Assembly (NCBI GenBank): GCA_963828495.1
Contig: CAWHFJ010000013.1
Span: 7,952-71,951, forward strand
DNA: 64,000 nucleotides
Reading direction: 5' to 3'
From: Candidatus Omnitrophota bacterium
GTDB lineage: Bacteria; Omnitrophota; Gorgyraeia; Zapsychrales; Fredricksoniimonadaceae
Below are positions 22,457-37,852 of the stretch, one piece after another. Positions within the stretch are counted from its first letter, which is position 1; every line of letters starts with the position of its first letter. Made by a program: the position numbers and the translations under genes. Below the pieces are notes generated by a model that saw only the letters and a program-made list of their open reading frames with translations, was not told where the DNA came from and ran no database searches.

Positions 22457-23881
22457 CTATTTTTCCCAACCTCCACCCAGCGCTTTATATAAAACAACCA
22501 ACGCCTGTAGCTCATTGCGCTGGGCTTGGGCCAATTCAAGTTGGGCAGAATAATATCTCGTATTACTATCCAGCACTTCCAGATAACTGGATGTCCCGCC
22601 CTTATAGCGCAATTCAGACAATCGCGCCGCGTCCTTGGCCGATTGAGTCAACATTTCCTGTTGCGTCCTAAATTCCTGATTTTTGCGGTAGGCCACCAGC
22701 GCGTCGGAGACTTCCCTAAATGCCTGTTGTATCGTCTTACGGTAAAAATGCAAGGCTTCCTGCTGTTGGGCCTTAGCGAATTTGACCCCGGCCCGGATCC
22801 GTCCGGCGGTAAAGATCGGCTGTGTCAGGGTGCCGACAATGTCCCAAAGTCCGCTGGGTCCGCTAAAAAGTTTGCTTAGCGCGGCACTTTGATACCCGCC
22901 GGTTGCGGTCAAGCTGATATCCGGGAAATACGCCCCCTGGGCCACGCCAATCTGCGCGTTATACGCAACCAATTGCTGCTCGGCTTGCTGAATATCCGGC
23001 CTGCGTTCCAGCAAAGAGGAAGGAAGTCCGGCAGGAACCACCGGTGCATGCGGCTGTTGGGTCAAGACCCGTCCGCGTTCAACACTACCCGGGTTATTCC
23101 CCAAAAGAATACTGATTAAATTTTCCTGTTGCTCGATCCTGCGTTCCAGGTCAGGCACACTTTTGGCTGCGGTGTACACTAATTGCTCGGCTTGGCGTAC
23201 ATCTAACATCGACGCAGAACCATGGTCAGCCAAATGCTTGATAAGCCCTAAGGAATCCTGCTGGGAGGCCAACGTGCGTTTGGAAATTTCTAACTCCATG
23301 TCTAATTCACGCAGTTGGAAATACGCGCTACTCACGTCCGCAATCAAGGAAGTAATCACCGCCTGACGGGCCCAGTGGCTCGCCAACAGATTGGCCCTGG
23401 AAACTTCAATCATCCGGCGATATTTTCCCCAAAAATCAAGGTCCCATGTCACCGTTCCAGTAAACGAATAGGCGCCCAGCTCATACGGATTGGATGAAGG
23501 CATCCTTTCAATCCGCTCTCCGATGATCCCAGTCCCTGCAGTGATAGTCGGCAGTTCATAACTACTCGTTATCGTCAACTGTGCTTGTGCTTCGAGAATG
23601 CGGTCTGCCGCGATACGCACGTCATAATTTTGCTGCAAGGCCGTATGGATCAACTCCTGCAGTTTGCTGTCTTGAAAAACTTCCCCCCATTTCTGCTCAC
23701 CGATAGAAGCACTGCCTATTGATGAATCAGGAGATATCCCCCGATAGGCTCCCGGGACATCAACGCTAGGTTTCTTATAATTAGGGCCAATCGCGCAACC
23801 GGCCAATAAGGCGCATAATAAAACAAGAGATTGCTTCGCCCATCGGGCTCGCAATGACACTGCTGTTATACCTCTGTTCAT
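22457..23881 (-). CDS. Outer-membrane efflux factor (NodT/TolC family lipoprotein)
   Basis: Preferred start is MNRGITAV (ATG at 23881, ATGA overlap with the RND stop). Lipobox is LLAGCAIGPNYKKP. The sequence is a full-length OMF ending ALGGGWEK. Confidence 0.85.
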   Translation of the reverse strand: MNRGITAVSLRARWAKQSLVLLCALLAGCAIGPNYKKPSVDVPGAYRGISPDSSIGSASIGEQKWGEVFQDSKLQELIHTALQQNYDVRIAADRILEAQAQLTITSSYELPTITAGTGIIGERIERMPSSNPYELGAYSFTGTVTWDLDFWGKYRRMIEVSRANLLASHWARQAVITSLIADVSSAYFQLRELDMELEISKRTLASQQDSLGLIKHLADHGSASMLDVRQAEQLVYTAAKSVPDLERRIEQQENLISILLGNNPGSVERGRVLTQQPHAPVVPAGLPSSLLERRPDIQQAEQQLVAYNAQIGVAQGAYFPDISLTATGGYQSAALSKLFSGPSGLWDIVGTLTQPIFTAGRIRAGVKFAKAQQQEALHFYRKTIQQAFREVSDALVAYRKNQEFRTQQEMLTQSAKDAARLSELRYKGGTSSYLEVLDSNTRYYSAQLELAQAQRNELQALVVLYKALGGGWEK

Positions 23882-26800
23882 TTTATATGCTCCACTGGCT
23901 TTTTCTTCTTTGCAAACCGCTCTGTAATGACAAACAAAGCGGGAATGATAAAAATCGCTATCATCGTTGCTGTCAACATGCCGGCAATGACCACTGTTCC
24001 CAGCACCTGGCGCGCGACGGAGCCGGAGCCTTTGGCAAACCACAGCGGCAGACAGCCCAAGATAAAAGCAAAAGAAGTCATCAGGATCGGACGAAAACGA
24101 AGCCTCGCTCCCTCCAGCGCCGCATCTATAGTATCGCGGCCTTTTTCATGTTCCATTTTGGCAAACTCCACGATCAGAATGGCGTTCTTGGCGGACAGAC
24201 CTATGAGCATGATCAAACCGATCTGGGAATAAACATTAAGATCAAAATGGCGCATGAAAAGCCCCGCAAAAGCGCCACAGATTGCGATGGGCACGGAAAG
24301 CAAAACTGAAAATGGTAACGACCAACTTTCGTAAAGAGCGGCGAGGATCAAAAATACTACAACGATCGACAACGCGAAAATAGGACCTGCAGTTCCCGCC
24401 ACTGTTTTCTCCTGAAAGGAAAGGTCACTATAATCATACCCCATATTAAGCGGCAAGGTCTCACGGGCCACCTCTTCAAGTGCCGCCAGCGCTTGACCCG
24501 AGCTATAGCCCGGCGCTGCGGACCCCAGAATCTGGGCCGCGCGGTAAAGGTTAAAACGGTTGGTGTACTCGGTGCCGAAGATTTTTTTAATGGTGACTAT
24601 GCTCGAAAGCGGAACCATGTCTTGATTACTATTGCGCACATAAAACTGGTTGATACTCTCGGAACGCATCCTGTCTTCGCCTTCTGCCTGTACCAAAACC
24701 TTCCATTGCCGGCCAAAACGGTTGAATTGATTGACATACAACCCCCCCAGAAAAGCCTGCAGCGTCTGATAAACGCTGCCTATATCCACCCCTTGTTTCA
24801 ATACTTTATCGCGGTCGACATCAGCGTACAGTTGAGGAACGGTCGCAGAAAATCCTGAAATAACCCCTGCAAGCTCCGGCCGTTTTTTACAAGCCGCTAA
24901 GAATTTCTTGACATTCTGGTCAAGAAATTCAATCGACCCGCCGCTTTTGTCCTGCAGCCAAAACGAAAAACCGCCGGAAGTCCCGAGTCCCGGAATAGCC
25001 GGCGGCAATCCGGCAAAAGCTCTGGCCTCGGGCACTTCGGTCGCCAATCTTCTATTGATATTGTTAATGACCGATTGAATTTGTAATTGTCGTGATGTGC
25101 GTTCATCCCACGGAGAGAGTGTCACAAAAAAGAACCCATTGTAGCTGGCTGAAACACGGGTCAACAAACTAAATCCGGAAATACTCGTATAATATTGGAT
25201 CCCCGGAGTGGTCGCCAGGATCCCTTCAATTTTATGAGCCACCTTGTCCGTCCTCTCCAGCGAAGAAGCAGTAGGCAGCTGCAGATTGAGAAAACAGAAA
25301 CCATAATCTTCATTAGGCAGAAACCCTGTCGGGATCTTCCACCCCATCGCTCCATGTCTAAAACCGCGAAGCCGCGCCAAGAAGAATCATGCCTATCAGG
25401 GCCTTGCGGATAACGACAAGGCTCCATTGACCATACTTTTGTGTTACTTTTTTAAACCATTGATTGAAACGATCAAAAAAATTGGCTAAAAAGCTATGGG
25501 ATGCCGCATGACGAGGCCGTAACAAAATTGAGGCCAAGCGCCGGTGAAAGGCTCAGGGCATTAAACGCTGAAATAAGGACCGAAATGGCCACGGTCAAGG
25601 CAAACTGCTTGTTTAAACTCCCCTGGATCCCGCTCATTAACGCAACGGGAATAAATACGGAAGAAAGCACCAGTGCTATGCCTATGACGGGACCGGAAAC
25701 TTCCTCCATGGCCTTAAACGCCGCATCCCTTGGCGTCATCCCTTCCCCTATATGACGCTCAATGGCCTCCACCACCACGATAGCATCGTCGACTACAAGG
25801 CCGATGGCCAACACAAGACCGAACAGCGATAGCGTATTGATGGAGAAATGTAAAAACGGGAAAAAAGCAAAAGTGCCGATCAAAGAAACAGGGACAGCGA
25901 TCATAGGAATAAGTGTGGCCCGCCAATTTTGCAGGAAAAGAAAAACGACCAAGGTGACCAGGAGCATCGCGATCAGAGCGTTATTAAAATCTCCCGGATC
26001 CCTTCAGTCACCGGCAAGGTAGTGTCCAACGCCACTGTATAGTCAAGGTCAGCCGGGAAACGATCTTTGAGCTTTGCCAATGCCTTTTTGATCCCTTCGG
26101 CGACCTGTATAGCGTTAGAACCTGGGGTTTGAAAAACAGCAATATTACAGCTGGGCTGGCCGTTAAATCTCCCAATGACTTGATAGTTCAAAGCGCCCAA
26201 CTCAATGCGGGCCACATCTTTCAGGCGTACAAATGAACCGTCCGGATTGGAGCGTATCACAATTTGCCCAAATTCCTCAGGAGTAACCAGCCGCCCCTGG
26301 GCCCTGACAGTATAAGTTTTTTCTTTACCCTTGGGGGCCGGTTCAGATCCCACCTGGCCGGCAGGATTGACGGTATTCTGCTCTCCGACGGCGTTAACGA
26401 TATCGGCAACGATTAGACCCAGCTTCGCCAGCATTTGCGGCTTGACCCAAATGCGCATCGTATAATCCCCTGCGCCAAAAATCCTGACTTCGCCGACACC
26501 CGGAACACGATAAAGCACATCATTAATATTAATATTCGCATAGTTAGCCAGAAAAAGAGATTTATACGTCTTGTGAGGTGAAAACAAGGAGACGATCATC
26601 ATCGGGAAGCCTGTTGACTTACGAAATGCCAACCCATATTGATTAACATCCGGAGGTAAATTAGGCTGTGCCTGTGCCAGGCGATTTTGCACGTTGACCT
26701 GGTCGATGTTAGAATCACTGTCTACGCTAAAAGTAATGGCTTCTTGGAAGGTGCCGTCATTGGCGTTGGTCGACTGCATGTAAAGCATGTTCTCAACACC

Positions 26801-27010
26801 ATTCATGGATTGCTCTATGGGTGTTGCTACCGACTGCTCGATGGTGATTGCGTCGGCCCCCGTATATGCTGTGCTGACAAAAATCTGCGGCGGGACAATC
26901 TGAGGGAATTGGGCCAGAGGCAACCCCTGTATCGCCACAAGACCGGCGATAACAGTCAAAATGGCGATGACCATCGCCACGATAGGGCGGTTAATAAAGA
27001 ATTTTGACAT
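23878..27010 (-). pseudogene. RND efflux permease (AcrB-like, HAE-1) broken by about 3 frameshifts
   Basis: Fragments are 25973..27010 (MSKFFINRPIVAMVIAIL), 25494..25967 ([18 protein letters not shown]), an unlisted frame at 25381-25530, and 23878..25380. Confidence 0.8.
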
Positions 27011-27124: not shown

Positions 27125-28247
27125 ACCAGTAGTCACATTAACTACCGCTCCGTCTTTGACATTCTGTACGCCTTCGACAACTACGCGCTCGTCGGGTTGG
27201 AGGCCCTCATTGATGATCCACATCGAATCCACAGTCTCACCGACTTTGACCGTACGTATCGCAACCTTATTATCGCTACCGACAACCGCAACCTGATAAC
27301 TCCCCTGAAGCTCCATGACTGCGCGTTGAGGCACCAGAATCGTGCATTTCTCTCACACTCATCACCGCGCGCACGCGCCCAAACTGTCCGGGGCGCAAAA
27401 TATTGCCCGGATTAGGGAACGATACCGCAACAAGAATGGTCCCGGTGCCGGTGTCTATCTGACGGTCCGCAAAAATAAAGGCCCCTTTTTCCGGATAAGT
27501 TTCTCCATTGCCCAAAATCAAAGTCAGCTGAGAATCTTCCTGAGGAGGCTCTTGATCCCCCGATGCGGCCGCATCAATTTTTTTAGTGAAACTGAAATAT
27601 TCCTGCTCACTCATAGACACATAAGCTTTGATAGGGTCCACTTGCGAAACGGTAGTCAACTGTGTCGTGGGCCCGACCAAATCCCCGATCTGCCCTTTGG
27701 CAATCCCCGCAATCCCGTCGACGAGGGACTTGACCTTGGTAAAGTCTAAATTTAATTGGGCCTGGGCGACATCGGCCTGGGCGGATTCGACCGCGGCCCT
27801 AGCCGACAACTCTGCCTGGATATCGTCGTCCAACTGGCTTTGGGCAATGGCTTTTTCTGCGGCCAGCGGTGTATCGCGCTTGACATCCAGTGTCGTCTTG
27901 CCTAATTGGGCCTGAGCTTGGGCCAGCGCTCCCCGGGCTCTTTCCAGAGCTACCTGAAACGGACGGGGATCAATCTCAAAAAGCACATCATTCTTATGGA
28001 CAAGAGAGCCTTCCTTATATATCTGCCCCACCAGATAACCTGAAACCTGCGGCTGAATATGCGCGTTGACATACCCGTCTAAGGTCGTGACCCATTCTCT
28101 ATAAACAGGAACGTCTTTCTGAACGACACCGGCAACTTCCACATTAGCCACCATAGCAGGGGGCGCCACCGGTTTGTTCTGGCATCCCTGAAAGCATAAA
28201 GTAACCGCTATCGTCAATAAGAATAAAGAGAATCGAAGAATATTCAT
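27089..28247 (-). pseudogene. RND periplasmic adaptor (AcrA-like MFP lipoprotein) with one frameshift near 27340
   Basis: ORF 27276..28247 (lipobox LCFQGC, MFP core) continues in ORF 27089..27334 (ILVPQRAVMELQGSYQVAVV). Confidence 0.8.
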
Positions 28248-28785: not shown

Positions 28786-30009
28786 TTACTTAATTGTAGA
28801 CGTCACCATTAAACCGCCATTCAATTTCTTTTCTAACTCTTCCACCTGCTTTTGAAGGACATTGATCTCCCTGGCTTCTTCATCATTTCTTTTTTGCATG
28901 TCTTCAAATTTCTTGTCCAACTCCTTAATGGCATTAACAGCTGCGGCGAGAATGGGCGTTGTGCTGACTTGTTTGTAGCCTTCCCCGCCGATATTGACCG
29001 CTTCGGGAAGCGCCTTCTCAACGTCCTGAGCAATAAACCCGGAATAACGCACTCCCCCGTCATAAAGATAGGAATCTTTTTTCCACGAATAAGTCTGAGG
29101 ATTGATTTTAGATATTGCGGATAAGCCTTGGTCAAAACTGCCGTGAATGTCCTTGAGCCGCACATCAGAGGTGCAGCTCATCAAACCGGCCGCGCTTGTC
29201 TGAACGCCAGCGCAAGAAACAAGCCCTGCAACAGTAAGACTTCCGCCGTTAAGCACCCTCGCGCTTCCAAACACGTCAAGCTTTGACCCCGGCGTGATCG
29301 ATCCAATCCCCACATTACCAACCTGCACGATTAAACTCCCTCCGGGAGTGATCCATGTGCCGATGCCTACATTACCGTTAGTCACAACCAGACCGGCCTG
29401 TGGAGTCGTCGTGCCTATGCCCACGTTGCCTAATCTTACAGCAACACCAATATCGGAAACATCCATTGTAGGCGCAGCCGCCGTTCCGATTTCAAATTCA
29501 GGTTGGGCCATCTGATAGGCGCCCTGACCAGGACGATTTTCATACCGTATGTTCCTTTGATTGGTTAAACCTTTAAATACAAAATCTACTAGATCCACGC
29601 TCCCCAATTGCTGAAACATGGCACCATTAACGCCATTTCTATTTTGCATATTTAATGCTACTGTCCCATATGTATCTCCCGTTTCTTGAAAAGTTAAACC
29701 TGTGTTGGCTGTAATTACTGAGTTAACTGCTCCAAAGGCCCATTGTGCCCCCCCAGTCACCCACGTCCCAATCCCCACATTGCCGTTCATCACCACTAAA
29801 GCTGCTTCACCGGCTCCACCGACAAAGGTTGTACCGATGCCGAGATTTCCACTATGGTACGCATCCCCAATCGTGCTAAACGGCTTTGCCGGCACCCATG
29901 TCCCTATCCCCACATTGCCGCCCATGACGCTCAAAGCAGCAGTCGATGTCTTAGTCGTGCCAATGCCTACATTACCGTTACTGTCAACCGCAAAAGGATC
30001 AGCTACCAT
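28786..30009 (-). CDS. Giant fibre protein 2, C-terminal part (GNVGIGT repeats plus Peptidase S74-like intramolecular chaperone domain)
   Basis: It begins (A)DPFAVDSNGNVGIGT, which in the larger paralogue directly follows ...MFQVSNGS. It therefore continues 29999..32419 across a 1-nt insertion near 30000-30004. The C-terminus is CTSDVRLKDIHG...GFIAQDVEKALPEAV plus a coiled coil. Confidence 0.8.
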   Translation of the reverse strand: MVADPFAVDSNGNVGIGTTKTSTAALSVMGGNVGIGTWVPAKPFSTIGDAYHSGNLGIGTTFVGGAGEAALVVMNGNVGIGTWVTGGAQWAFGAVNSVITANTGLTFQETGDTYGTVALNMQNRNGVNGAMFQQLGSVDLVDFVFKGLTNQRNIRYENRPGQGAYQMAQPEFEIGTAAAPTMDVSDIGVAVRLGNVGIGTTTPQAGLVVTNGNVGIGTWITPGGSLIVQVGNVGIGSITPGSKLDVFGSARVLNGGSLTVAGLVSCAGVQTSAAGLMSCTSDVRLKDIHGSFDQGLSAISKINPQTYSWKKDSYLYDGGVRYSGFIAQDVEKALPEAVNIGGEGYKQVSTTPILAAAVNAIKELDKKFEDMQKRNDEEAREINVLQKQVEELEKKLNGGLMVTSTIK

Positions 30010-32419
30010 TGCTGACCTGAAACATCACCGTCGGCGCCCACGTCCCTATCCCCACATTCCCGTTCATGACCACCAATCCTGCCCCAACCCCTGATGTTGT
30101 TCCTATCCCTACGGTGTTCGTCGTATTTATCCCGACGTTGCCCATGCCGCCGGCTAACGACCAATAGTTATTAGCCTCAACCCATGATGTTTTACAACTA
30201 CTGCCAAAACAAATCGTGCCTGTCGGGCTTACGTCTAAGGAACCAGCCGGAGCTACGGAGCTGATGCCGACGTTCCCATTTATGGTCAGCTGTTGCCCCG
30301 TGAGAGAGCCAGCTGAACCCGAGAATGTACCATATAACAATGAATATGTATGATCGTTTGCAAGACTCCCTTCCGGAACATTATTCACATAAAAAGAGTT
30401 TGAAGCGGTCTCATTATAGCCAGCATTGGCGCCGATAAAAATATCCCCTGAGCCTGTGCTATTGTTATTACCTGCTTGATATCCAAGAGCGGTGTTGTTA
30501 GAGCCTGTGGTGTTATTACCGAGCGCATAATATCCATTTGCGGTGTTGCTAGTGCCTGTGGTATTAAACCGGAGCGCATTATATCCATTTGCGGTGTTGG
30601 AAGATCCTGTGGTATTAGTAGAGAGCGCCCCTTCTCCATTTGCGGTGTTGTTAGAGCCTGTGGTGTTAGAATAGAGCGCCCAACTTCCATTTGCAGCGTT
30701 GTTAGAGCCTGTGGTGTTATTATAGAGCGCATTATATCCATACGCAGTGTTATTCAAATTTCCTGCTGCCGTTAAAACTCCAGCTTGATAACCGGCATAA
30801 ATACTTGTCGTGTCTGCATGCAAAGTTAAAATAGTAGTGCCTGAAGTGCCTGCCATAATACCAAAAGCCGTACCAATGCCAATGTTGCCGCTAACCACAT
30901 CCAGCAAATTCGCCGGCACCCATGTGCCTATCCCTACATTACCATTGGTCACCACCAATGCTCCTTGATTAGTCGCCTTGGTCCCTATCCCTACATTACC
31001 ATTATAATATGTGTCCCCCATGACGCTTAACGGTTTGACCGGCGCCCATGTCCCTATCCCCACATTGCCGTTCATAACAACTAATCCTGCTCCAACTCCC
31101 GAAGTCGTCCCTATACCTACGGTGTTCGTGGTGCTTATGCCGACGTTGCCCGTGCCGCCGGCTAACGACCAATAGTTATTAGCACTAGCCCATGATGTTT
31201 TACAACTACTGCCAAAACATATTGTGCCTGTCGGGCTTACGTCTAACGAACCCGCAGGAGTTATGGAGCCGATGCCTACATTACCACTGCCAAGAATTGT
31301 CATTAATGGTGTGCCATAGCCATTAGAAAATTGTGCCATAATGTCCGAATTGGCAAGATTAGTAACACCAGTACCGCCATTAGTTTTAAATCCCTGGAAT
31401 ATAATTGCTGCCAAACCATTTGTATTGGTGTTTCCAAAAACTCCACCTAGAGCTAATGGTTGATCACTATTATTATTGGAAGCGTTTGTACTAAATCCGT
31501 AAATCAATAAACCTCCCCATCCAGCACTATCATTATCAATTAAACCGTATGCATGAGTTGTTAAATTATTTGCTGAAGCGCCAAAACCAGCTGAAGAATA
31601 ATTTGGAATAGTTAGACTAGTGTCCTCAAATAGTACACCTGCACCCGCCGGGGAGACTAAGTCCATAGTATCCACCGGTATCCACGTGCCAATCCCCACG
31701 TTACCGTTCATCACCGTCAATGCGCCTTCACCGCCACCTCCGCCGACAAAGGTCGTGCCGATACCGATATTCCCATTATTATATTCATCCCCCGTCACGC
31801 TCAATGGTTTCGCCGGCGCCCATGTCCCTATCCCCACATTGCCGTTCATAACAACTAACCCTGCTCCAACTCCCGAAGTCGTCCCTATACCTACGGTGTT
31901 CGTGGTGCTTATCCCGACGTTGCCTGTGCCGCCGGCTAACGACCAATAGTTACTAGAACTCGCCCATGATGTTTTACAACTACTGCCAAAACATATCGTG
32001 CCTGTCGGGCTTACGTCTAACGAACCCGCCGGAGCTACGGAGCCGATCCCCACATTACCAACCACATTCAACGCCGAGCCCGGCACCCAGGTGCCGATGC
32101 CTACATTACCATTCATCACCGTCAATGCGCCAAGTGGCGTGCTCGTCCCGATGCCGATGTTCATATTAACGTTGGTATTGAAAGGCATATATGAGGCCAT
32201 CGCCGGTAAGGAACAAGCCATGCAAAGGAAACCAATGAGCATAAAAACAATCGATTTCTTACGGTCTGCTTCTATTAATTCCCTGAGAATCGTCACAAAA
32301 GACGGGTCTTGCCCACGCATTTTTCTATCGAGAGCTTTAATTTTAAGAAACTGGTATTGATCGGCGGTCAGATCAATAGAAGTCTTAATCATTCTCTCTT
32401 CGGGTTTCTTCTGTGCCAT
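29999..32419 (-). CDS. Giant fibre protein 2, N-terminal part (RHH-like segment, TM/signal segment, fibre repeats)
   Basis: Preferred start is MAQKKPEERMIKTSIDLTADQYQFLKIKALDRKMRG (ATG at 32419). The hydrophobic segment is IVFMLIGFLCMACSLPAMA. It has three 76-aa modules and a 17-aa NTxxG/NTTG repeat block. Confidence 0.8.
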   Translation of the reverse strand: MAQKKPEERMIKTSIDLTADQYQFLKIKALDRKMRGQDPSFVTILRELIEADRKKSIVFMLIGFLCMACSLPAMASYMPFNTNVNMNIGIGTSTPLGALTVMNGNVGIGTWVPGSALNVVGNVGIGSVAPAGSLDVSPTGTICFGSSCKTSWASSSNYWSLAGGTGNVGISTTNTVGIGTTSGVGAGLVVMNGNVGIGTWAPAKPLSVTGDEYNNGNIGIGTTFVGGGGGEGALTVMNGNVGIGTWIPVDTMDLVSPAGAGVLFEDTSLTIPNYSSAGFGASANNLTTHAYGLIDNDSAGWGGLLIYGFSTNASNNNSDQPLALGGVFGNTNTNGLAAIIFQGFKTNGGTGVTNLANSDIMAQFSNGYGTPLMTILGSGNVGIGSITPAGSLDVSPTGTICFGSSCKTSWASANNYWSLAGGTGNVGISTTNTVGIGTTSGVGAGLVVMNGNVGIGTWAPVKPLSVMGDTYYNGNVGIGTKATNQGALVVTNGNVGIGTWVPANLLDVVSGNIGIGTAFGIMAGTSGTTILTLHADTTSIYAGYQAGVLTAAGNLNNTAYGYNALYNNTTGSNNAANGSWALYSNTTGSNNTANGEGALSTNTTGSSNTANGYNALRFNTTGTSNTANGYYALGNNTTGSNNTALGYQAGNNNSTGSGDIFIGANAGYNETASNSFYVNNVPEGSLANDHTYSLLYGTFSGSAGSLTGQQLTINGNVGISSVAPAGSLDVSPTGTICFGSSCKTSWVEANNYWSLAGGMGNVGINTTNTVGIGTTSGVGAGLVVMNGNVGIGTWAPTVMFQVSNGS
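30038..30265 (-). repeat. 228-nt / 76-aa fibre module, copy 1 of 7
   Basis: Encodes ISSVAPAGSLDVSPTGTICFGSSCKTSWVEANNYWSLAGGMGNVGINTTNTVGIGTTSGVGAGLVVMNGNVGIGTW. Confidence 0.85.
31046..31273 (-). repeat. 228-nt / 76-aa fibre module, copy 2 of 7
   Basis: Encodes IGSITPAGSLDVSPTGTICFGSSCKTSWASANNYWSLAGGTGNVGISTTNTVGIGTTSGVGAGLVVMNGNVGIGTW. Confidence 0.85.
31820..32047 (-). repeat. 228-nt / 76-aa fibre module, copy 3 of 7
   Basis: Same module (…WASSSNYW…). It is part of the ~600-nt 5' region shared with gene 1. Confidence 0.85.
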
Positions 32420-32442
32420 ACCTTTACCTACATTAATTTCTC

Positions 32443-35400
32443 TCAATTCCCTATACGGGATTTGAGATCAGCTATTTCTTCCTTCATCGTTGCGATTTCT
32501 ACTCGCAAACCCTCAACTTGTGCCTCAAGCGTCTTGACACTATTGATTTTATTATTCAACGATTGCATGCCGAGGATCATATAACCCAGGGTATTGACCG
32601 GATTAACAATGTTGCCGTCATAATGCATCGCCCATGGAGCATCCTCAGCCATGACACCCACATATTCTGTTTTACTATCTCCCGTCCCCATGCCGGGTTT
32701 ATAACGGAAGCGGTAGACCTGGGTATGAAGTATTTTGTCAAGCGCATCGGAAGAATTGGCAAGACCAATAATATTTTTCCATTTCCGCAAAGAACCTGGG
32801 GCCGCCCAAGAAGTGACTCCGCTGTTGGCGGCAGCTACTGTCAACTGAAATCCGGCTGTGGGATTCTGAGCGGCAGGCAAAGTCATGGTCCATGAGGTTA
32901 CGGTGGCAGGGACAGTTATCGCTAGGGTCCCAGAAGTTGCGCCGGCAAGACGGATAACTCCGGCTTGAGAACCGGCATTACCCACATCCAATAACACGCC
33001 AGGGTTCGTGGTGCTGATACCCACGTTGCCGTTGGAATTGACGAACATTGCCGGAATAGGGTTCCCCCCTACGTTATAAACTCCAAACTCTAAACTACTT
33101 CCTGCACTGGCGTTTTCAATAATGTCAAGATTACTTGTTGTATTTACGCCAAAATTGAGCGAAGTACCTCCTCCAAGCCAACTGCCATTGGCAATCTTCA
33201 TCATGGGATCTCCAGCGACCAATCCCCACTGACTCATTCCTTCTCCAGCTCCATCACTTCTTCCGATGAAAGTTCCTACGGTAGGCGACGTTATGCTATT
33301 CGCAGTATCTATTACGTGGATCGCCCCGCCCTTAACATCCAGCTCGTAACTCGGCACCCAGGTGCCGATGCCCACGCTACCAGATATAGCTAATCCATTG
33401 CTTGGCCCCGCTGTACTGGCAGAATATCCAATGGCCGCATTCCCACTGACTTGCAACGTGCTTCCCGAAGCACTCGTCCCGATGCCCACGCTGGCATTAG
33501 TAAAATATGCTTGTGCATACCAAGAAGAAGCGGTAATTGTAAAGTGTTCGTAAGGATTGCCGCTGCCATCAGAGGTATACATGCGAATTCCACGCGGGTT
33601 TATGCCCGATGGATCCCCTCCCACAAGCGTGAGTGTATCAGGGGTTGCGGGGGCAGGGGCGGCCAGCGACCCACCAGTGATATTAACGCTTGATACCTTG
33701 CCGTTTAATATTATTGGATTTGTGCTTTCTACATCAAGACCGCCTACCGGAATCGTAGTGCCGATGCCAACGTTGCCTCCAGCCTGATTAAGACCATTAA
33801 AAATAATTGGAATAGTTCCTTCGACATCAAGCCTACCTGCCGGCTGATATGAGCCTATACCCGTGTTGCCGGTGGGAGTAATAGTCAAGGCGCCCCCGAC
33901 CCAAGTCCCACCCATTACAGGCTGAAATGTCATGATACCTGTGCTCCTAACGCCGAAATCACCGCTTCCGTCAGGGGAATAATTGAGCCATGTACCATTG
34001 CCATTACCGACAGAAAATATGAACGTTCCGGTTCTGATGTCCAAATTTTGAGCGGGACTCGTCACTCCGATACCGACATTGCCGTTTGTTATAATCAACC
34101 CTCCACCGTTAGCTGTTGTTGTCCCAACCCCGACAATTTCTAATGGAACAAGCGGCACCCAGGTGCCGATACCCACGTTGCCGTTCATGACGCTTAAAGC
34201 GGCAGTCGATGTCTTAATCGTACCAATGCCTACATTACCGTTACTGTCAACCGCAAAAGGATCAAAACCATTGCTGACCTGAAACATCACCGCCGGCACC
34301 CAAGTACCGATGCCCACATTACCGTTCATGACAACCAATCCCGCGCCAACTCCCGAAGTCGTCCCTATCCCTACCGTGTTCGTGGTACTTATCCCGACGT
34401 TACCTGTACCGCCGGCTAACGACCAATAGTTATTAGCACTAGCCCATGATGTTTTACAACTACTGCCAAAACATATTGTGCCTGTCGGGCTTACGTCTAA
34501 CGAACCCGCCGGAGCTACGGAGCCAATCCCCACATTGCCAACCCGCACGATTAAACTCCCACCGGAAGTGGTCCATGTGCCGATGCCCACATTACCATTG
34601 GTCACAACTAAACCACCTACCGGAGTAGCCGTGCCGATGCCGACATTACCAGCACCGGTAACTACATCATAAACTACAGTTCCAGCCTTATTATCCAAAT
34701 CGAGAATGTCTGAAGTAGCTGTATTAGAACCAAACACAGTTAGGGCTGGGTCTGTGGCTGTGCCGGCAATAAATCCTCCGGTAACGCCTGCATAAGCTCC
34801 ATGTATTTCTATCCCCCAATAAGCGGATAATTGCATCCTTTCACCATACCCATTTTGAATAACATTGTTGTTATCCCCAAATTGCAGTTGAGCTGCTTGC
34901 CCATTGGCAAATGCTGGTGCAAATCCGAATGTTCTTGGGGCAGCTGTACTTGAACCGGCAGCGTTCTCTAATATATTTCCAGTTGCTCCTATAGAGCCAT
35001 TGACGGCTAAAGTGGTTGTTAGAGACACCCATGTCCCGATGCCCACATTGCCATTCATTATGTCTAACGCGCCATTCGTCACCCATGTCCCTATCCCCAC
35101 ATTGCCGTTCATCACCGTCAATGCGCCTTCACCGCCACCTCCGCCGACAAAGGTCGTGCCGATACCGATATTCCCGTTATGATACGCATCCCCAGTCACG
35201 CTAAATGGCTTCGCCGGCGCCCATGTTCCTATCCCCACATTACCGTTCATGACCACCAAACCTGCCCCAACTCCTGAAGTCGTTCCTATACCTACGGTGT
35301 TCGTGGTGCTTATGCCGACGTTACCCGTGCCGCCTGCTAACGACCAATAGTTATTAGCACCAACCCATGATGTTTTACAACTACTGCCAAAACATATTGT

Positions 35401-37275
35401 GCCTGTCGGGCTCACGTCCAGGGAACCCGCCGGGGCTACGGAGCCGATCCCCACATTCCCGTTCATCACCGCCAATGCGGCTTCACCCGTTGCGCCGACA
35501 AAATTAGTACCAATGCCAACATTCCCTTTAACTACTAAACCATAAGAACCGCCAGCAGGTACCCATGTCCCTATTCCAACATTTCCATAGGGATAAATAG
35601 TAGTAGTTACGTTATGGTTGCCGAAAGTAATCGTATTGCTTCCGTTACCTGTGCAGTTATATCCATAACAGGCCTCGTTTGTGTCCCCGGAGTTATTGAG
35701 AGGAGCGGCGTTTTCTCCTACGAGTGTTAAATAAGTGTCATAAGTTTCGCTGCTTCCTGCGTTGTAGCCGACTGCGGTGTTATCTGTTCCTGTGGTGTTA
35801 GCATAGAGCGCTTGAAATCCATTTGCGGTGTTGTAAGAACCTGTGGTATTAGCTTGAAGTGCATAATATCCATTTGCGGCATTGCTGAGGCCCATGGTGT
35901 TACTTTTGAGAGCTTCATATCCAAATGCGGTGTTGCCAGTACCTGTGGTGTTATTATAAAGTGCCTGCACTCCACTTGCGGTATTCCAACTACCTGTGGT
36001 GTTCCAATAGAGCGCCGCCCATCCATTTGCGGTGTTTTGAACGCCTGTGGTGTTACTATAGAGCGCCTGATTTCCATACGCGGTATTATTTAAACTTCCT
36101 CCTGTCGTTGAAGCTCCAGCTTGATAACCGGCATAAATACTTGTAGTGTCTGTACGCAAAGTTAAAATAGTATTACCTGAACCGCCTGCCATAATACTAA
36201 AAGCCGTCCCAATACCGATGTTGCCGCCAGCTACATCCAGCAAATTCGCCGGCACCCATGTCCCTATCCCCACATTGCCGCTCATCACAACCAATCCCGC
36301 TCCAACTCCTGAAGTCGTTCCTATACCTACGGTGTTCGTAGTGCTTATCCCGACGTTGCCGGTGCCGCCGGCTAACGACCAATAGTTACTAACACTAGCC
36401 CATGATGTTTTACAACTACTGCCAAAACAAATCGTGCCTGTCGGACTCACGTCCAGGGAACCAGCCGGAGTTATGGAGCCGATACCCACATTGCCGTTCA
36501 TCACGCTCAAAGCCGAGCCCGGCACCCAGGTCCCTATCCCCACATTGCCGCCCATGACGCTCAAAACAGCAGTCGATGTCTTAGTCGTGCCAATGCCTAC
36601 ATTACCGTTACTGTCAACCGCAAAAGGATCGGAACCGTTGCTGACCTGAAACATCACCACCGGCGCCCAGGTGCCAATGCCCACATTACCATTCATGACA
36701 ACTAATCCCGCCCCAACCCCTGCAGTCGTTCCTATACCTACAGTATTCGTGGTGCTTATGCCGACGTTGCCGGTGCCGCCGGCTAACGACCAATAGTTAC
36801 TAGAACTCGCCCATGATGTTTTACAACTACTGCCAAAACATATCGTGCCTGTCGGGCTTACGTCTAACGAACCCGCCGGAGCTACGGAGCCGATCCCCAC
36901 ATTACCAACCACATTCAAAACCGATCCCGGCACCCATGTCCCTATCCCCACATTACCATTCATCACCGTCAATGCACCAAGTGGTGTGCTCGTCCCGATG
37001 CCGATGTTCATATTAACGTTGGTATTGAAAGGCATGTATGAGGCCATCGCCGGCAAGGCATGAGCCATGCAAAGGAAACCAATGAGCATAAAAACGATCG
37101 ATTTTTTACGATCTGCTTCTATTAATTCCCTGAGAATCGTCACAAAAGACGGGTCTTGCCCCCGCATTTTTCTATCGAGAGCTTTAATTTTGAGAAACTG
37201 GTATTGATCGGCGGTCAGATCAATAGAAGTCTTAATCATTCTCTCTTTGGGTTTTGAGGATTTCTTCTCAGCCAT
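32443..37275 (-). CDS. Giant fibre protein 1 (~1610 aa): RHH-like segment, TM/signal segment, GNVGIGT fibre repeats, S74-like C-terminal domain
   Basis: Uninterrupted ORF. Preferred start is MAEKKSSKPKERMIKTSIDL (ATG at 37275, same context GTAAAGGNATG as the paralogue). It has more than 30 GNVGIGT-type motifs and four 76-aa modules. The C-terminus is PGSLRKWKNI...YVGVMAEDAP plus a coiled coil. Confidence 0.85.
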   Translation of the reverse strand: MAEKKSSKPKERMIKTSIDLTADQYQFLKIKALDRKMRGQDPSFVTILRELIEADRKKSIVFMLIGFLCMAHALPAMASYMPFNTNVNMNIGIGTSTPLGALTVMNGNVGIGTWVPGSVLNVVGNVGIGSVAPAGSLDVSPTGTICFGSSCKTSWASSSNYWSLAGGTGNVGISTTNTVGIGTTAGVGAGLVVMNGNVGIGTWAPVVMFQVSNGSDPFAVDSNGNVGIGTTKTSTAVLSVMGGNVGIGTWVPGSALSVMNGNVGIGSITPAGSLDVSPTGTICFGSSCKTSWASVSNYWSLAGGTGNVGISTTNTVGIGTTSGVGAGLVVMSGNVGIGTWVPANLLDVAGGNIGIGTAFSIMAGGSGNTILTLRTDTTSIYAGYQAGASTTGGSLNNTAYGNQALYSNTTGVQNTANGWAALYWNTTGSWNTASGVQALYNNTTGTGNTAFGYEALKSNTMGLSNAANGYYALQANTTGSYNTANGFQALYANTTGTDNTAVGYNAGSSETYDTYLTLVGENAAPLNNSGDTNEACYGYNCTGNGSNTITFGNHNVTTTIYPYGNVGIGTWVPAGGSYGLVVKGNVGIGTNFVGATGEAALAVMNGNVGIGSVAPAGSLDVSPTGTICFGSSCKTSWVGANNYWSLAGGTGNVGISTTNTVGIGTTSGVGAGLVVMNGNVGIGTWAPAKPFSVTGDAYHNGNIGIGTTFVGGGGGEGALTVMNGNVGIGTWVTNGALDIMNGNVGIGTWVSLTTTLAVNGSIGATGNILENAAGSSTAAPRTFGFAPAFANGQAAQLQFGDNNNVIQNGYGERMQLSAYWGIEIHGAYAGVTGGFIAGTATDPALTVFGSNTATSDILDLDNKAGTVVYDVVTGAGNVGIGTATPVGGLVVTNGNVGIGTWTTSGGSLIVRVGNVGIGSVAPAGSLDVSPTGTICFGSSCKTSWASANNYWSLAGGTGNVGISTTNTVGIGTTSGVGAGLVVMNGNVGIGTWVPAVMFQVSNGFDPFAVDSNGNVGIGTIKTSTAALSVMNGNVGIGTWVPLVPLEIVGVGTTTANGGGLIITNGNVGIGVTSPAQNLDIRTGTFIFSVGNGNGTWLNYSPDGSGDFGVRSTGIMTFQPVMGGTWVGGALTITPTGNTGIGSYQPAGRLDVEGTIPIIFNGLNQAGGNVGIGTTIPVGGLDVESTNPIILNGKVSSVNITGGSLAAPAPATPDTLTLVGGDPSGINPRGIRMYTSDGSGNPYEHFTITASSWYAQAYFTNASVGIGTSASGSTLQVSGNAAIGYSASTAGPSNGLAISGSVGIGTWVPSYELDVKGGAIHVIDTANSITSPTVGTFIGRSDGAGEGMSQWGLVAGDPMMKIANGSWLGGGTSLNFGVNTTSNLDIIENASAGSSLEFGVYNVGGNPIPAMFVNSNGNVGISTTNPGVLLDVGNAGSQAGVIRLAGATSGTLAITVPATVTSWTMTLPAAQNPTAGFQLTVAAANSGVTSWAAPGSLRKWKNIIGLANSSDALDKILHTQVYRFRYKPGMGTGDSKTEYVGVMAEDAPWAMHYDGNIVNPVNTLGYMILGMQSLNNKINSVKTLEAQVEGLRVEIATMKEEIADLKSRIGN
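34300..34527 (-). repeat. 228-nt / 76-aa fibre module, copy 4 of 7
   Basis: Same module in gene 1 (…WASANNYW…), found with the anchor ccaatagtt at 34423. Confidence 0.85.
35221..35448 (-). repeat. 228-nt / 76-aa fibre module, copy 5 of 7
   Basis: Same module in gene 1 (…WVGANNYW…), anchor at 35344. Confidence 0.85.
36256..36483 (-). repeat. 228-nt / 76-aa fibre module, copy 6 of 7
   Basis: Same module in gene 1 (…WASVSNYW…, MSGNVGIGTW), anchor at 36379. Confidence 0.85.
36667..36894 (-). repeat. 228-nt / 76-aa fibre module, copy 7 of 7
   Basis: Same module in gene 1 (…WASSSNYW…), anchor at 36790. It is the counterpart of copy 3. Confidence 0.85.
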
Positions 37276-37417
37276 GCCTTTACCTGCCACAATATTTTTA
37301 TATAACGCTATAATTATATAAAATTGGAGGAAAAAAGCCACAGGAATTTCGATAATTTTCATCGGGAAATAAATGGTGACATCTACCAAATTATTGTATA
37401 CTTAAATAGGGTGAGAT

Positions 37418-37852
37418 ATGAATAACAGAAAAGGGTTTACTTTAGTTGAAATAACAGCGGCTCTGGTTATTATAGGCATTTTGGCCGCCATCACTGTCCC
37501 CCATTATACGGCTTATACCCAACAGGGTGCGGCCAGGGCTGCCCTGAATAATTTAATAACCATTTATGGGGCGCAAAATAATTACTATACGGGGACAAGC
37601 GGCAATGGCGCCTATTGTATCGCCGGTTGTGATACTCTGTCTGATATCAATACTAATCTGTTTTTGAACCTCGTTGACCCCAACTTCCAATATACCTGCA
37701 GTACAACCGCTACGCAAAACCCGAATCGTTCGACTGGATTCACATGCACAGCAACGGACAGTTACTTTACTCTGACCTTAACAGACGCTCATCTCGTGCC
37801 CTATGCTAACCCAAAATGTGTCCCTGCTGGTTCCACAACTTGCCCTGGTTAA
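37418..37852 (+). CDS. Type IV pilin / pseudopilin-like protein (prepilin-type N-terminal cleavage/methylation domain)
   Basis: MNNRKG|FTLVEITAALVIIGILAAITVP is a class III signal (G-1, F+1, E+5). The C-terminal domain has 6 Cys. An SD-like GGGTGAG lies upstream. It is the only credible plus-strand gene. Confidence 0.8.
   Translation: MNNRKGFTLVEITAALVIIGILAAITVPHYTAYTQQGAARAALNNLITIYGAQNNYYTGTSGNGAYCIAGCDTLSDINTNLFLNLVDPNFQYTCSTTATQNPNRSTGFTCTATDSYFTLTLTDAHLVPYANPKCVPAGSTTCPG

Follow-up and report, generated by a model that had tools for sequence, protein, structure and literature searches.

Seven copies of a 76-residue cysteine-hairpin module in two adjacent fiber genes of an Omnitrophota bacterium: divergence, selection and recombination

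The two fiber genes and their seven modules

Omnitrophota are widespread, uncultured and mostly ultra-small bacteria that are thought to live on or off other cells. We analyzed a 64-kb stretch of an Omnitrophota contig (CAWHFJ010000013.1, positions 7,952 to 71,951; "the window" below), in which two adjacent fiber genes, gene 1 and gene 2, carry a repeated coding module of 228 nucleotides (nt). A preliminary description of this DNA had placed seven such modules, three in gene 2 and four in gene 1, and had regarded them as near-identical direct repeats that could vary the fiber in length or antigenicity. Coordinates and translations confirmed the seven starts, the two fiber genes, and the presence of the module in both genes and repeatedly within each. 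The copies proved to be old paralogues held alike by purifying selection on the protein, not recent duplicates or a homogenized array. The genes, given as open reading frames (ORFs) with lengths in amino acids (aa), and the modules are as follows, in window coordinates.

32443..37275, minus strand: gene 1, fiber protein of 1610 aa if read from its likely ATG at 37275 behind GGTAAAGG; it has four modules and 33 NVGIGT-type motifs, and its C-terminus is weakly S74-like
29999..32419, minus strand: N-terminal ORF of gene 2, 815 aa from a TTG at 32446, with its likely ATG at 32419; three modules; the stop is made by a 1-nt insertion
28786..30009, minus strand: C-terminal ORF of gene 2, 407 aa, continuing the fiber in the +1 frame; globular insert, Peptidase_S74 domain and C-terminal coiled coil
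36667..36894, minus strand: first module of gene 1
36256..36483, minus strand: second module of gene 1
35221..35448, minus strand: third module of gene 1
34300..34527, minus strand: fourth module of gene 1
31820..32047, minus strand: first module of gene 2
31046..31273, minus strand: second module of gene 2
30038..30265, minus strand: third module of gene 2, the most divergent copy (ISS..., VEANNYW, GGMGNVGIN)

All seven segments lie on the minus strand and translate to the same 76-aa sequence type. A hidden Markov model of the module, run on six-frame translations of the 64-kb window, recovered exactly these seven copies, and a repeat finder returned a seven-copy family in which each member begins 7 nt before the module start coordinate. 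The module consists, in order, of a GNVGIGS turn, LDVSPTGT, a C-x4-C hairpin (ICFGSSCKTSW), NYW, and then three more G-N-V-G-I-x-T turns. One C-x4-C pair (ICFGSSC) per module had been described and was seen in all seven translations. The long identical nucleotide stretch that had been quoted was likewise recovered as a perfect 31-mer, cccatgatgttttacaactactgccaaaaca, with 7 occurrences and 0 mismatches compared to an expectation of 0 in shuffled sequence. The module repeat is real and far above chance expectation. Spacing between modules is 411-2480 nt, so that they are dispersed rather than tandem, and no GNVGIGT motif was found in the 64-kb window outside 28.7-37.4 kb.

The longest ORF of gene 1 extends over 32443..37389 (1648 aa), its likely start being the ATG listed above, and the protein is identical to database protein P0001. 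An exact look-up of P0001 and of P0014 among contig records gave no match. The two ORFs of gene 2 hold 18 and 7 NVGIGT-type motifs. Both fiber proteins are rich in Gly, Asn, Thr and Ser and contain several non-repetitive inserts of 95-210 aa; the stalk halves of the two genes are alike, whereas the distal ends are different. Outside the C-terminal S74 regions, no Pfam, NCBIfam or PDB matches were found in either protein. The cysteines of the mature fibers all occur in C-x4-C pairs (those of the modules and one extra pair in gene 1), except for one C-x12-C pair just before the S74 site of gene 2; such pairing would fit an oxidizing, extracytoplasmic location. The extra pair, CYGYNC, is outside the modules at residues 574-579 of the gene 1 ORF (approximately 35653-35670). 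Each gene also contains one tandem array of 51-nt units that encodes 17-aa NTTGxxNTAxGxxAL repeats.

30489..30741, minus strand: 51-nt units, 5 copies, in gene 2
35773..36089, minus strand: 51-nt units, 6.2 copies, in gene 1

The array copy number thus differs between the paralogues, and the 17-aa repeats are reminiscent of trimeric adhesin head repeats.

Divergence, selection and recombination among the modules

"Near-identical" is an apt term for the modules at the protein level (87-99% identity) but not at the DNA level, where identity is 86-96% with 10-32 differences per 228 nt. There are 53 variable sites in the seven modules, of which 7, 7 and 39 are at codon positions 1, 2 and 3, respectively. 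By the Nei-Gojobori method, the seven window modules had a mean nonsynonymous divergence (dN) of 0.032 and a mean synonymous divergence (dS) of 0.437, a ratio of 0.07. Because dS is approximately 0.44 compared to a dN of approximately 0.03, with changes mostly at third positions, the copies are old and have been kept alike by selection on the protein. The likeness of the modules is explained mainly by purifying selection on a structural domain. Every copy is distinct, and even the closest pair differs by at least 4.4% at the DNA level. Beyond the shared 31-mer, exact identity within modules extends over 122 nt at most (31820 vs 36667), and the next longest stretch is 101 nt (31046 vs 34300). 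Near-identity of repeats at the protein level should not be taken as recent duplication unless synonymous divergence is checked.

Modules with the same domain were available for comparison from three other contigs: L001 and L002, which are from two samples of one related species, and L046, from another relative. In a neighbor-joining tree, the window modules interleaved with those of L001, L002 and L046, a pattern that was plain overall even though a tree built on only 228 nt is weakly resolved. The nearest nucleotide neighbor was in another genome for 4 of the 7 window modules, at a distance of 7.5-9.2%, which is the typical distance within the window. Comparison of the locus with relatives, which the preliminary description had recommended, therefore gave modules that are not grouped by genome and no sign of homogenization, and the degree of similarity at the DNA level on which that description relied did not hold. 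Because dS is approximately 0.44 and the modules interleave with those of other genomes, these data argue against the view that conversion is frequent, that expansion was recent or that variation has a fast mechanism.

The modules are nonetheless usable as substrates for homologous recombination, as had been proposed: all 21 module pairs have a 31-nt exact core in common, and the two genes share an exact run of 146 nt (36773-36918 = 31926-32071). This run belongs to a longer pair of similar tracts at the 5' ends of the genes.

36774..37248, minus strand: 5' tract of gene 1, 475 nt, 95.6% identical to gene 2 31927-32401
31927..32401, minus strand: matching 5' tract of gene 2, from alignment of the 5' ends

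Within the 475-nt tract lie the N-terminal extension and the signal segment, together with the conserved SYMPFNTNVNMN start and module 1 as far as its first half. The tract begins just past the start codon and stops in the middle of module 1, after which identity is 84% and is then lost beyond the module. In a permutation test on runs of concordant variable sites, the run between 31820 and 36667 (41 sites) was reached in 0 of 2000 permutations (global p<0.0005). Tracts for 31046/34300, 31046/31820, 34300/36667 and 31820/34300 were significant pairwise but not globally. At least one inter-gene exchange or late duplication, between 31820 and 36667, is thus statistically supported. The larger repeat units are mosaics because a module is followed by one of three alternative flanks, and these flanks are themselves common to both genes.

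A difference of another kind was observed in the relative represented by L001 and L002. Between L001 20442-20935 and L002 1732-2268, the flanks are 99.8-99.9% identical and the intervening cassette of approximately 500 nt is wholly different. The cassette sits between two GNVGIGTW-coding repeats inside a fiber gene of 3774 aa, the contigs are from different samples, and the L002 version partly matches another site in L002 at 94%. The difference could reflect a cassette swap between strains, or else noisy contigs that were misassembled. Taken together, these observations indicate that occasional recombination between copies and at conserved repeat anchors reshuffles cassettes over evolutionary time, as shown for one 5' tract and suggested for the relative. 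Expansion, contraction and conversion as a route to variation therefore survive in part: one exchange or late duplication is supported, related proteins differ in module number from 2 to 10-11, and a cassette differs in the relative, but the divergence and the interleaved tree do not agree with frequent or fast variation. Nothing was found that points to a device for rapid or programmed variation.

A stronger version of the same idea is that RecA-dependent crossover or gene conversion is active among the modules, with frequent changes of fiber length or inter-gene swaps in the population that yield length or antigenic variation. Several results favor it, namely the exact core in all pairs together with the 146-nt run, the one significant conversion-like tract with several pairwise-significant ones, the L001/L002 cassette bounded by GNVGIGTW repeats, and a module number of 2 to 11 among related proteins. 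A relative that is 95% identical (L049) also has a non-fiber gene upstream of the pilin gene, at the position of gene 1 in the window. Most module pairs, however, are approximately 10% divergent, and divergence of approximately 10% strongly lowers homologous recombination. The lack of clustering by genome argues against ongoing homogenization, the modules are dispersed and not in tandem, and each gene has its own start, ribosome-binding site (RBS) and signal segment, leaving no silent donor cassettes. The L001/L002 difference could itself be misassembly in noisy contigs, and the L002 variant has frameshifts. We consider active recombination of this kind unlikely.

The Cys-hairpin core of the module behaves differently from the rest. 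Synonymous variation is locally low there, with a codon heterozygosity of 0.12 in codons 8-35 compared to 0.34 in codons 36-76, and for the lowest 12-codon window a permutation test on 25 unique modules, drawn from several genomes, gave p=0.002. The 31-mer encodes CFGSSCKTSW (e.g., 34443-34473 and six paralogous sites; module codons 19-35) and is identical in 7 of 7 copies and nearly so in the 25 unique modules from other genomes, whereas the remainder of the module is rich in synonymous changes. The fixed codons are TGT TTT GGC AGT AGT TGT AAA ACA TCA. Codon or translation constraints, short repeated conversion tracts, and selection for a shared crossover anchor are possible causes of the suppressed core variation. 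The last of these would fit active recombination, since the suppression is exactly in the shared core, here and in other genomes. An RNA structure was also considered as the cause of the invariant 31-mer and was rejected (fold z-score of -1.8, unremarkable). A more far-reaching scenario is that the fiber family is built for cassette shuffling, in which the 31-nt core and GNVGIGTW anchors would be kept nucleotide-identical beyond the need of the protein as in-register crossover points, and stalk and tip could be exchanged within and between paralogues to retarget attachment to the host; this we regard as a speculative idea with a small chance of being right.

The explanation that we favor, and hold to be probable, is that the seven modules represent one old structural domain in two adjacent paralogous genes for secreted S74-type fibers of Omnitrophota, kept alike by purifying selection with only occasional recombination. 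The domain would be one of several building blocks of long secreted fibers made largely of GNVGIGTW-type repeats. By analogy with characterized S74 proteins and with work on Bdellovibrio mosaic adhesive trimer (MAT) fibers (PMC10769870), the fibers may fold as homotrimers starting from the C-terminus and then shed the S74 chaperone, and could be displayed on the surface to act as adhesins towards host or prey cells. The module itself might be a disulfide-stapled node or spacer in the stalk, a guess based on the C-x4-C pattern and a low-confidence hairpin in a structural model.

Several points weigh against this explanation. Selection on the protein does not by itself account for the low synonymous variation in the Cys-hairpin core. 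The module tree is weakly resolved because the module is only 228 nt. The L001/L002 cassette difference and a break of synteny in L049 hint at turnover faster than "ancient and stable" would imply. Trimer formation, surface location, disulfides and adhesion are all drawn from analogy; the AlphaFold2 monomer model of the module was poor (predicted local distance difference test, pLDDT, 60.6; predicted template modeling score, pTM, 0.24; 50-sequence alignment); and the S74 match of gene 1 is under the Pfam threshold.

Fiber ends, wider family and known systems

The ends of the two fiber proteins have the following features.

28996..29169, minus strand: Peptidase_S74 domain of gene 2 (PF13884, E=1.2e-13, 51.5 bits, cut-off 22)
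32638..32795, minus strand: weak S74-like region in gene 1 that stays under the Pfam cut-off (18.7 compared to 22 bits), with a coiled coil after it
37102..37275, minus strand: in-frame N-terminal extension of gene 1, 58 aa, ahead of a hydrophobic signal-like segment at 37042-37101

In characterized S74 proteins, this domain drives trimer folding and then cleaves itself off. In gene 2, the SDxxxK motif of the catalytic Ser and Lys is SDVRLK (Ser281/Lys286 of the 407-aa ORF), which aligned to SDRRIK of phage S16 gp37; among PDB chains the domain matched S16 gp37 (6f45, E=9e-5) and also 8jov. Gene 1 has SLRKWK in place of SDxxxK, so that the Ser/Lys spacing is kept and the Asp is lost, and its C-terminus aligns with that of gene 2 at 22% identity (E=6e-4). 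With an above-cut-off domain and SDxxxK, only gene 2 can be assigned to Peptidase_S74 by sequence.

The RBS-ATG, the N-terminal extension and the signal segment are the same in the two genes, and the signal-type segment together with the family-conserved N-terminus SYMPFNTNVNMNIGIGT... is present in the fiber proteins. The 58-aa extension of gene 2 is at approximately 32255-32419 (minus strand), and in both genes it carries the sequence ...ERMIKTSIDLTADQYQFLKIKALDRKMRGQDPSFVTILRELIEADRKK. Five nucleotide differences separate the two copies of the extension core, and 5 of 5 are synonymous. An independent short-read contig (L048) carries the extension with one D-to-E change, and homologues elsewhere begin directly at the signal peptide, without the extension. 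A ribbon-helix-helix domain is suggested only by a strand-helix-helix pattern, with no Pfam, NCBIfam or PDB match. The AlphaFold2 single-sequence model of the extension was of low confidence (pLDDT 60) and consisted of two helices and a transmembrane helix. A speculative possibility is that the extension is cytoplasmic and is released on export, which would couple fiber secretion to gene regulation.

At least 1296 homologues of gene 1 were found, mostly of 1000-2800 aa, some with S74 in precomputed Pfam annotation. A signal peptide opens these proteins and a conserved SY(M/I/L)PFNTNVNMN(I/V)GIGT comes behind it, whereas at least 3 different domains are found at the C-terminus: P0014, P0009, P0018 and P0034 have one, P0002 and P0013 have another, and S74 is present in only some. 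In its strict form the module is rare: among 1.84 billion cluster representatives, its profile matched 166 at E<=1e-3, a number that fell to 21 at E<=1e-30. The domain was found at 126-148 bits in P0003 (5 copies), P0006 (2), P0014/P0127 (2) and P0122 (10-11 in 3774 aa), which gives the range of module number per related protein cited above. Looser variants are common in the fiber family, both Cys-containing (GTICLGHTCNSSWP) and Cys-less (LDVNGTVRATGF). Loci encoding relatives of the module belong almost entirely to metagenome-assembled genomes of Candidatus Omnitrophota. The 30-nt module core was absent from JGI metagenome contigs, and a protein-level scan of the same collection gave modules of <=77% identity only. 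Contig L001 (ERZ25039529 contig_25849) has four consecutive fiber genes of 3208, 760, 1135 and 3774 aa; 13 modules lie within 23 kb. Because this relative has four consecutive fiber genes, tandem arrays of such genes are, as judged from these contigs, a family trait.

The closest functional analogs of the Omnitrophota fibers are the MAT fibers of Bdellovibrio bacteriovorus (Caulton et al. 2024, PMC10769870). Both are chromosomal, multi-paralogue families of long secreted fibers in a bacterium thought to depend on other cells. In both, the signal peptide is followed by a conserved N-terminal region, the stalk is beta-rich and repetitive, and the distal ends are mosaic or variable. Both are also split into S74 members (here gene 2) and members with other tips (here P0014, P0009 and P0018, with a different C-terminal domain). 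All MATs begin with a signal peptide followed by a shared conserved beta-rich N-terminal domain of approximately 130 aa, and crystal structures of MAT C-terminal fragments are in the PDB (PMC10769870). A phmmer search of gene 1 and the gene 2 C-terminal ORF against all PDB chains found no similarity to the solved MAT constructs, returning phage fibers only or nothing. The Omnitrophota stalk of GNVGIGTW-type repeats, 17-aa NTTG/NTA repeats and the 76-aa Cys-hairpin module has no counterpart described for MATs in PMC10769870. Unlike MATs, the Omnitrophota fibers are in a different phylum and carry, in the window genes, a 58-aa N-terminal extension before the signal segment. Placement in the MAT superfamily is not established, since the comparison, made with the solved MAT structures, gave no sequence link. 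A family of S74-ended, mosaic, multi-paralogue fibers that parallels the MAT adhesins would give Omnitrophota a concrete candidate for the recognition of host or prey.

Phage S74 fibers and tailspikes (K1F endosialidase, T5 pb1, S16 gp37) have in common with gene 2 the C-terminal SDxxxK domain and a helical region. Since S74 is homologous to phage tail fiber C-termini (455 phage records matched the gene 2 domain at 25-30% identity, in addition to the 2 PDB entries above), prophage or tailocin tail-fiber genes were an alternative to consider. The likeness, however, is confined to the chaperone domain in the C-terminal 150-280 residues, and the Omnitrophota genes are cellular, with N-terminal signal-type segments as in cellular secreted proteins rather than a virion-attachment domain. 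No phage genes besides the S74 domain were found in the 64-kb window, and the flanks encode efflux, MarR, pilin, etf and acd functions. Prophage origin was rejected on this gene context, and we give it almost no weight.

Trimeric autotransporter adhesins (YadA-like) are long, repetitive and Gly/Asn/Thr-rich like the Omnitrophota fibers, the 17-aa repeats recall their head-type repeats, and some database homologues are labeled "trimeric autotransporter adhesin" or carry PF05658. YadA-like adhesins end in a beta-barrel anchor, whereas gene 2 ends in the S74 chaperone. No YadA anchor and no Hep_Hag/YadA head or stalk domains were found in the three ORFs (Pfam; NCBIfam also for the anchor), and membership in this group was ruled out for lack of an anchor domain.

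Neisseria pilE/pilS and Borrelia vlsE/vls likewise have repeated, partly identical coding segments in or near a surface-protein gene, with conversion-like tracts. Unlike those systems, there are no promoterless silent cassettes here, the copies are approximately 10% divergent with a dS of approximately 0.44, and it is the conserved rather than the variable part of the protein that is repeated. In place of one expression site with silent donors, all seven modules are inside two long ORFs, each with an RBS-ATG.

A 2026 preprint (10.64898/2026.06.07.730766), which has 176 complete Omnitrophota genomes, reports for long proteins of this phylum that repeat architectures persist and nucleotide tandems have dissolved. 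That preprint reaches the same general conclusion as ours, of old architectures with decayed nucleotide repeats. The Omnitrophota literature searched treats giant ORFs and type IV pili, without S74 or these fibers, and neither the NVGIGT motif nor Omnitrophota together with "tail fiber" was found in it. The locus encodes an uncharacterized S74-type mosaic fiber. Its modular design is ordinary apart from a few unusual details.

Assembly quality and genomic neighborhood

The split of gene 2 and the neighboring pilin gene add two further features.

30001..30004, minus strand: frameshift site of gene 2, GGTAGCTGATCC in the window compared to GGT-TCCGATCC and GGT-TTTGATCC at the paralogous sites of gene 1, a 1-nt insertion
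37418..37852, plus strand: prepilin-type (N_methyl) gene, divergent from gene 1; context only

Past the insertion, the 407-aa ORF carries on the paralogous sequence DPFAVDSNGNVGIGT. The insertion creates an overlapping stop/start, ATGGTAGCTGA, that splits gene 2 into its 815-aa and 407-aa ORFs. If real, it would cut off the S74 chaperone from the stalk that bears the signal segment, and the gene would probably be inactive. Single-base indels compared to short-read contigs of close relatives were also observed at 27346, 39377, 39450 and 40429 of the window, and the indel sites coincide with broken ORFs of etfB, acd and the RND adaptor, genes that are intact in the short-read contigs. The RND pump beside the fibers is in several pieces, with ORF fragments at 23878-27010. 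The window looks like an unpolished long-read assembly, and because its other 1-nt indels break ORFs that are intact in short-read contigs, a consensus error of that assembly is the most likely reason why gene 2 is split. Once repaired, gene 2 would code for approximately 1221 aa, with S74 at the end. We looked in other assemblies for an uninterrupted junction of gene 2 and found none; the best match, P0255 (98% identity, 273 aa), is on a 2.1-kb contig that ends before the junction.

These indels bear on a further alternative, that a misjoin or repeat collapse in a noisy long-read metagenome assembly produced the module count, the module order or even the pairing of the two genes. The preliminary description had warned of assembly problems, and for short-read data the warning was borne out: the contigs of five other assemblies stop at the locus or within it (at 37024 for both L048 and L050, at 37226 for L047 and at 28935 for L051, with the P0255 contig ending in the C-terminal ORF of gene 2). 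The insertion in gene 2 is similar to the indels that break the neighboring ORFs, and an in-register chimeric join is conceivable. Collapse, however, would require near-identical copies, and it is unlikely in this window because every module copy is distinct. The 4.9-kb ORF of gene 1 is uninterrupted, its 5' end is reproduced by the independent short-read contig L050 of ERR10755936 at 99.7% identity with no gaps, and the same architecture of tandem long fiber genes with many modules is present in relatives (L001). An artifact of this kind is improbable in our view. In practice, the locus is a warning for genome work: short-read assemblies break there, and noisy long-read ones easily get it wrong.

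The neighborhood of the fiber genes contains two RND efflux systems with an outer-membrane factor, MarR, the prepilin gene, etfAB, acyl-CoA dehydrogenase, enoyl reductase and tRNA genes. Named homologues of the glucose-1-phosphate adenylyltransferase (glgC-like) gene of the window are only from Omnitrophica/Omnitrophota, at 62-94% identity. The fiber genes sit on the chromosome of an Omnitrophota genome. A related fiber gene, P0127, is approximately 8 kb from T2SSE, T2SSF and pilin genes (L046 1-2040), and an association of the fibers with type IV pilus genes is possible. In L049, which is 95% identical over the pilin-etf region, synteny with the window stops at 37384, and L049 1-491 is a different, non-fiber gene upstream of the pilin gene; the fiber pair may be a strain-variable insertion.

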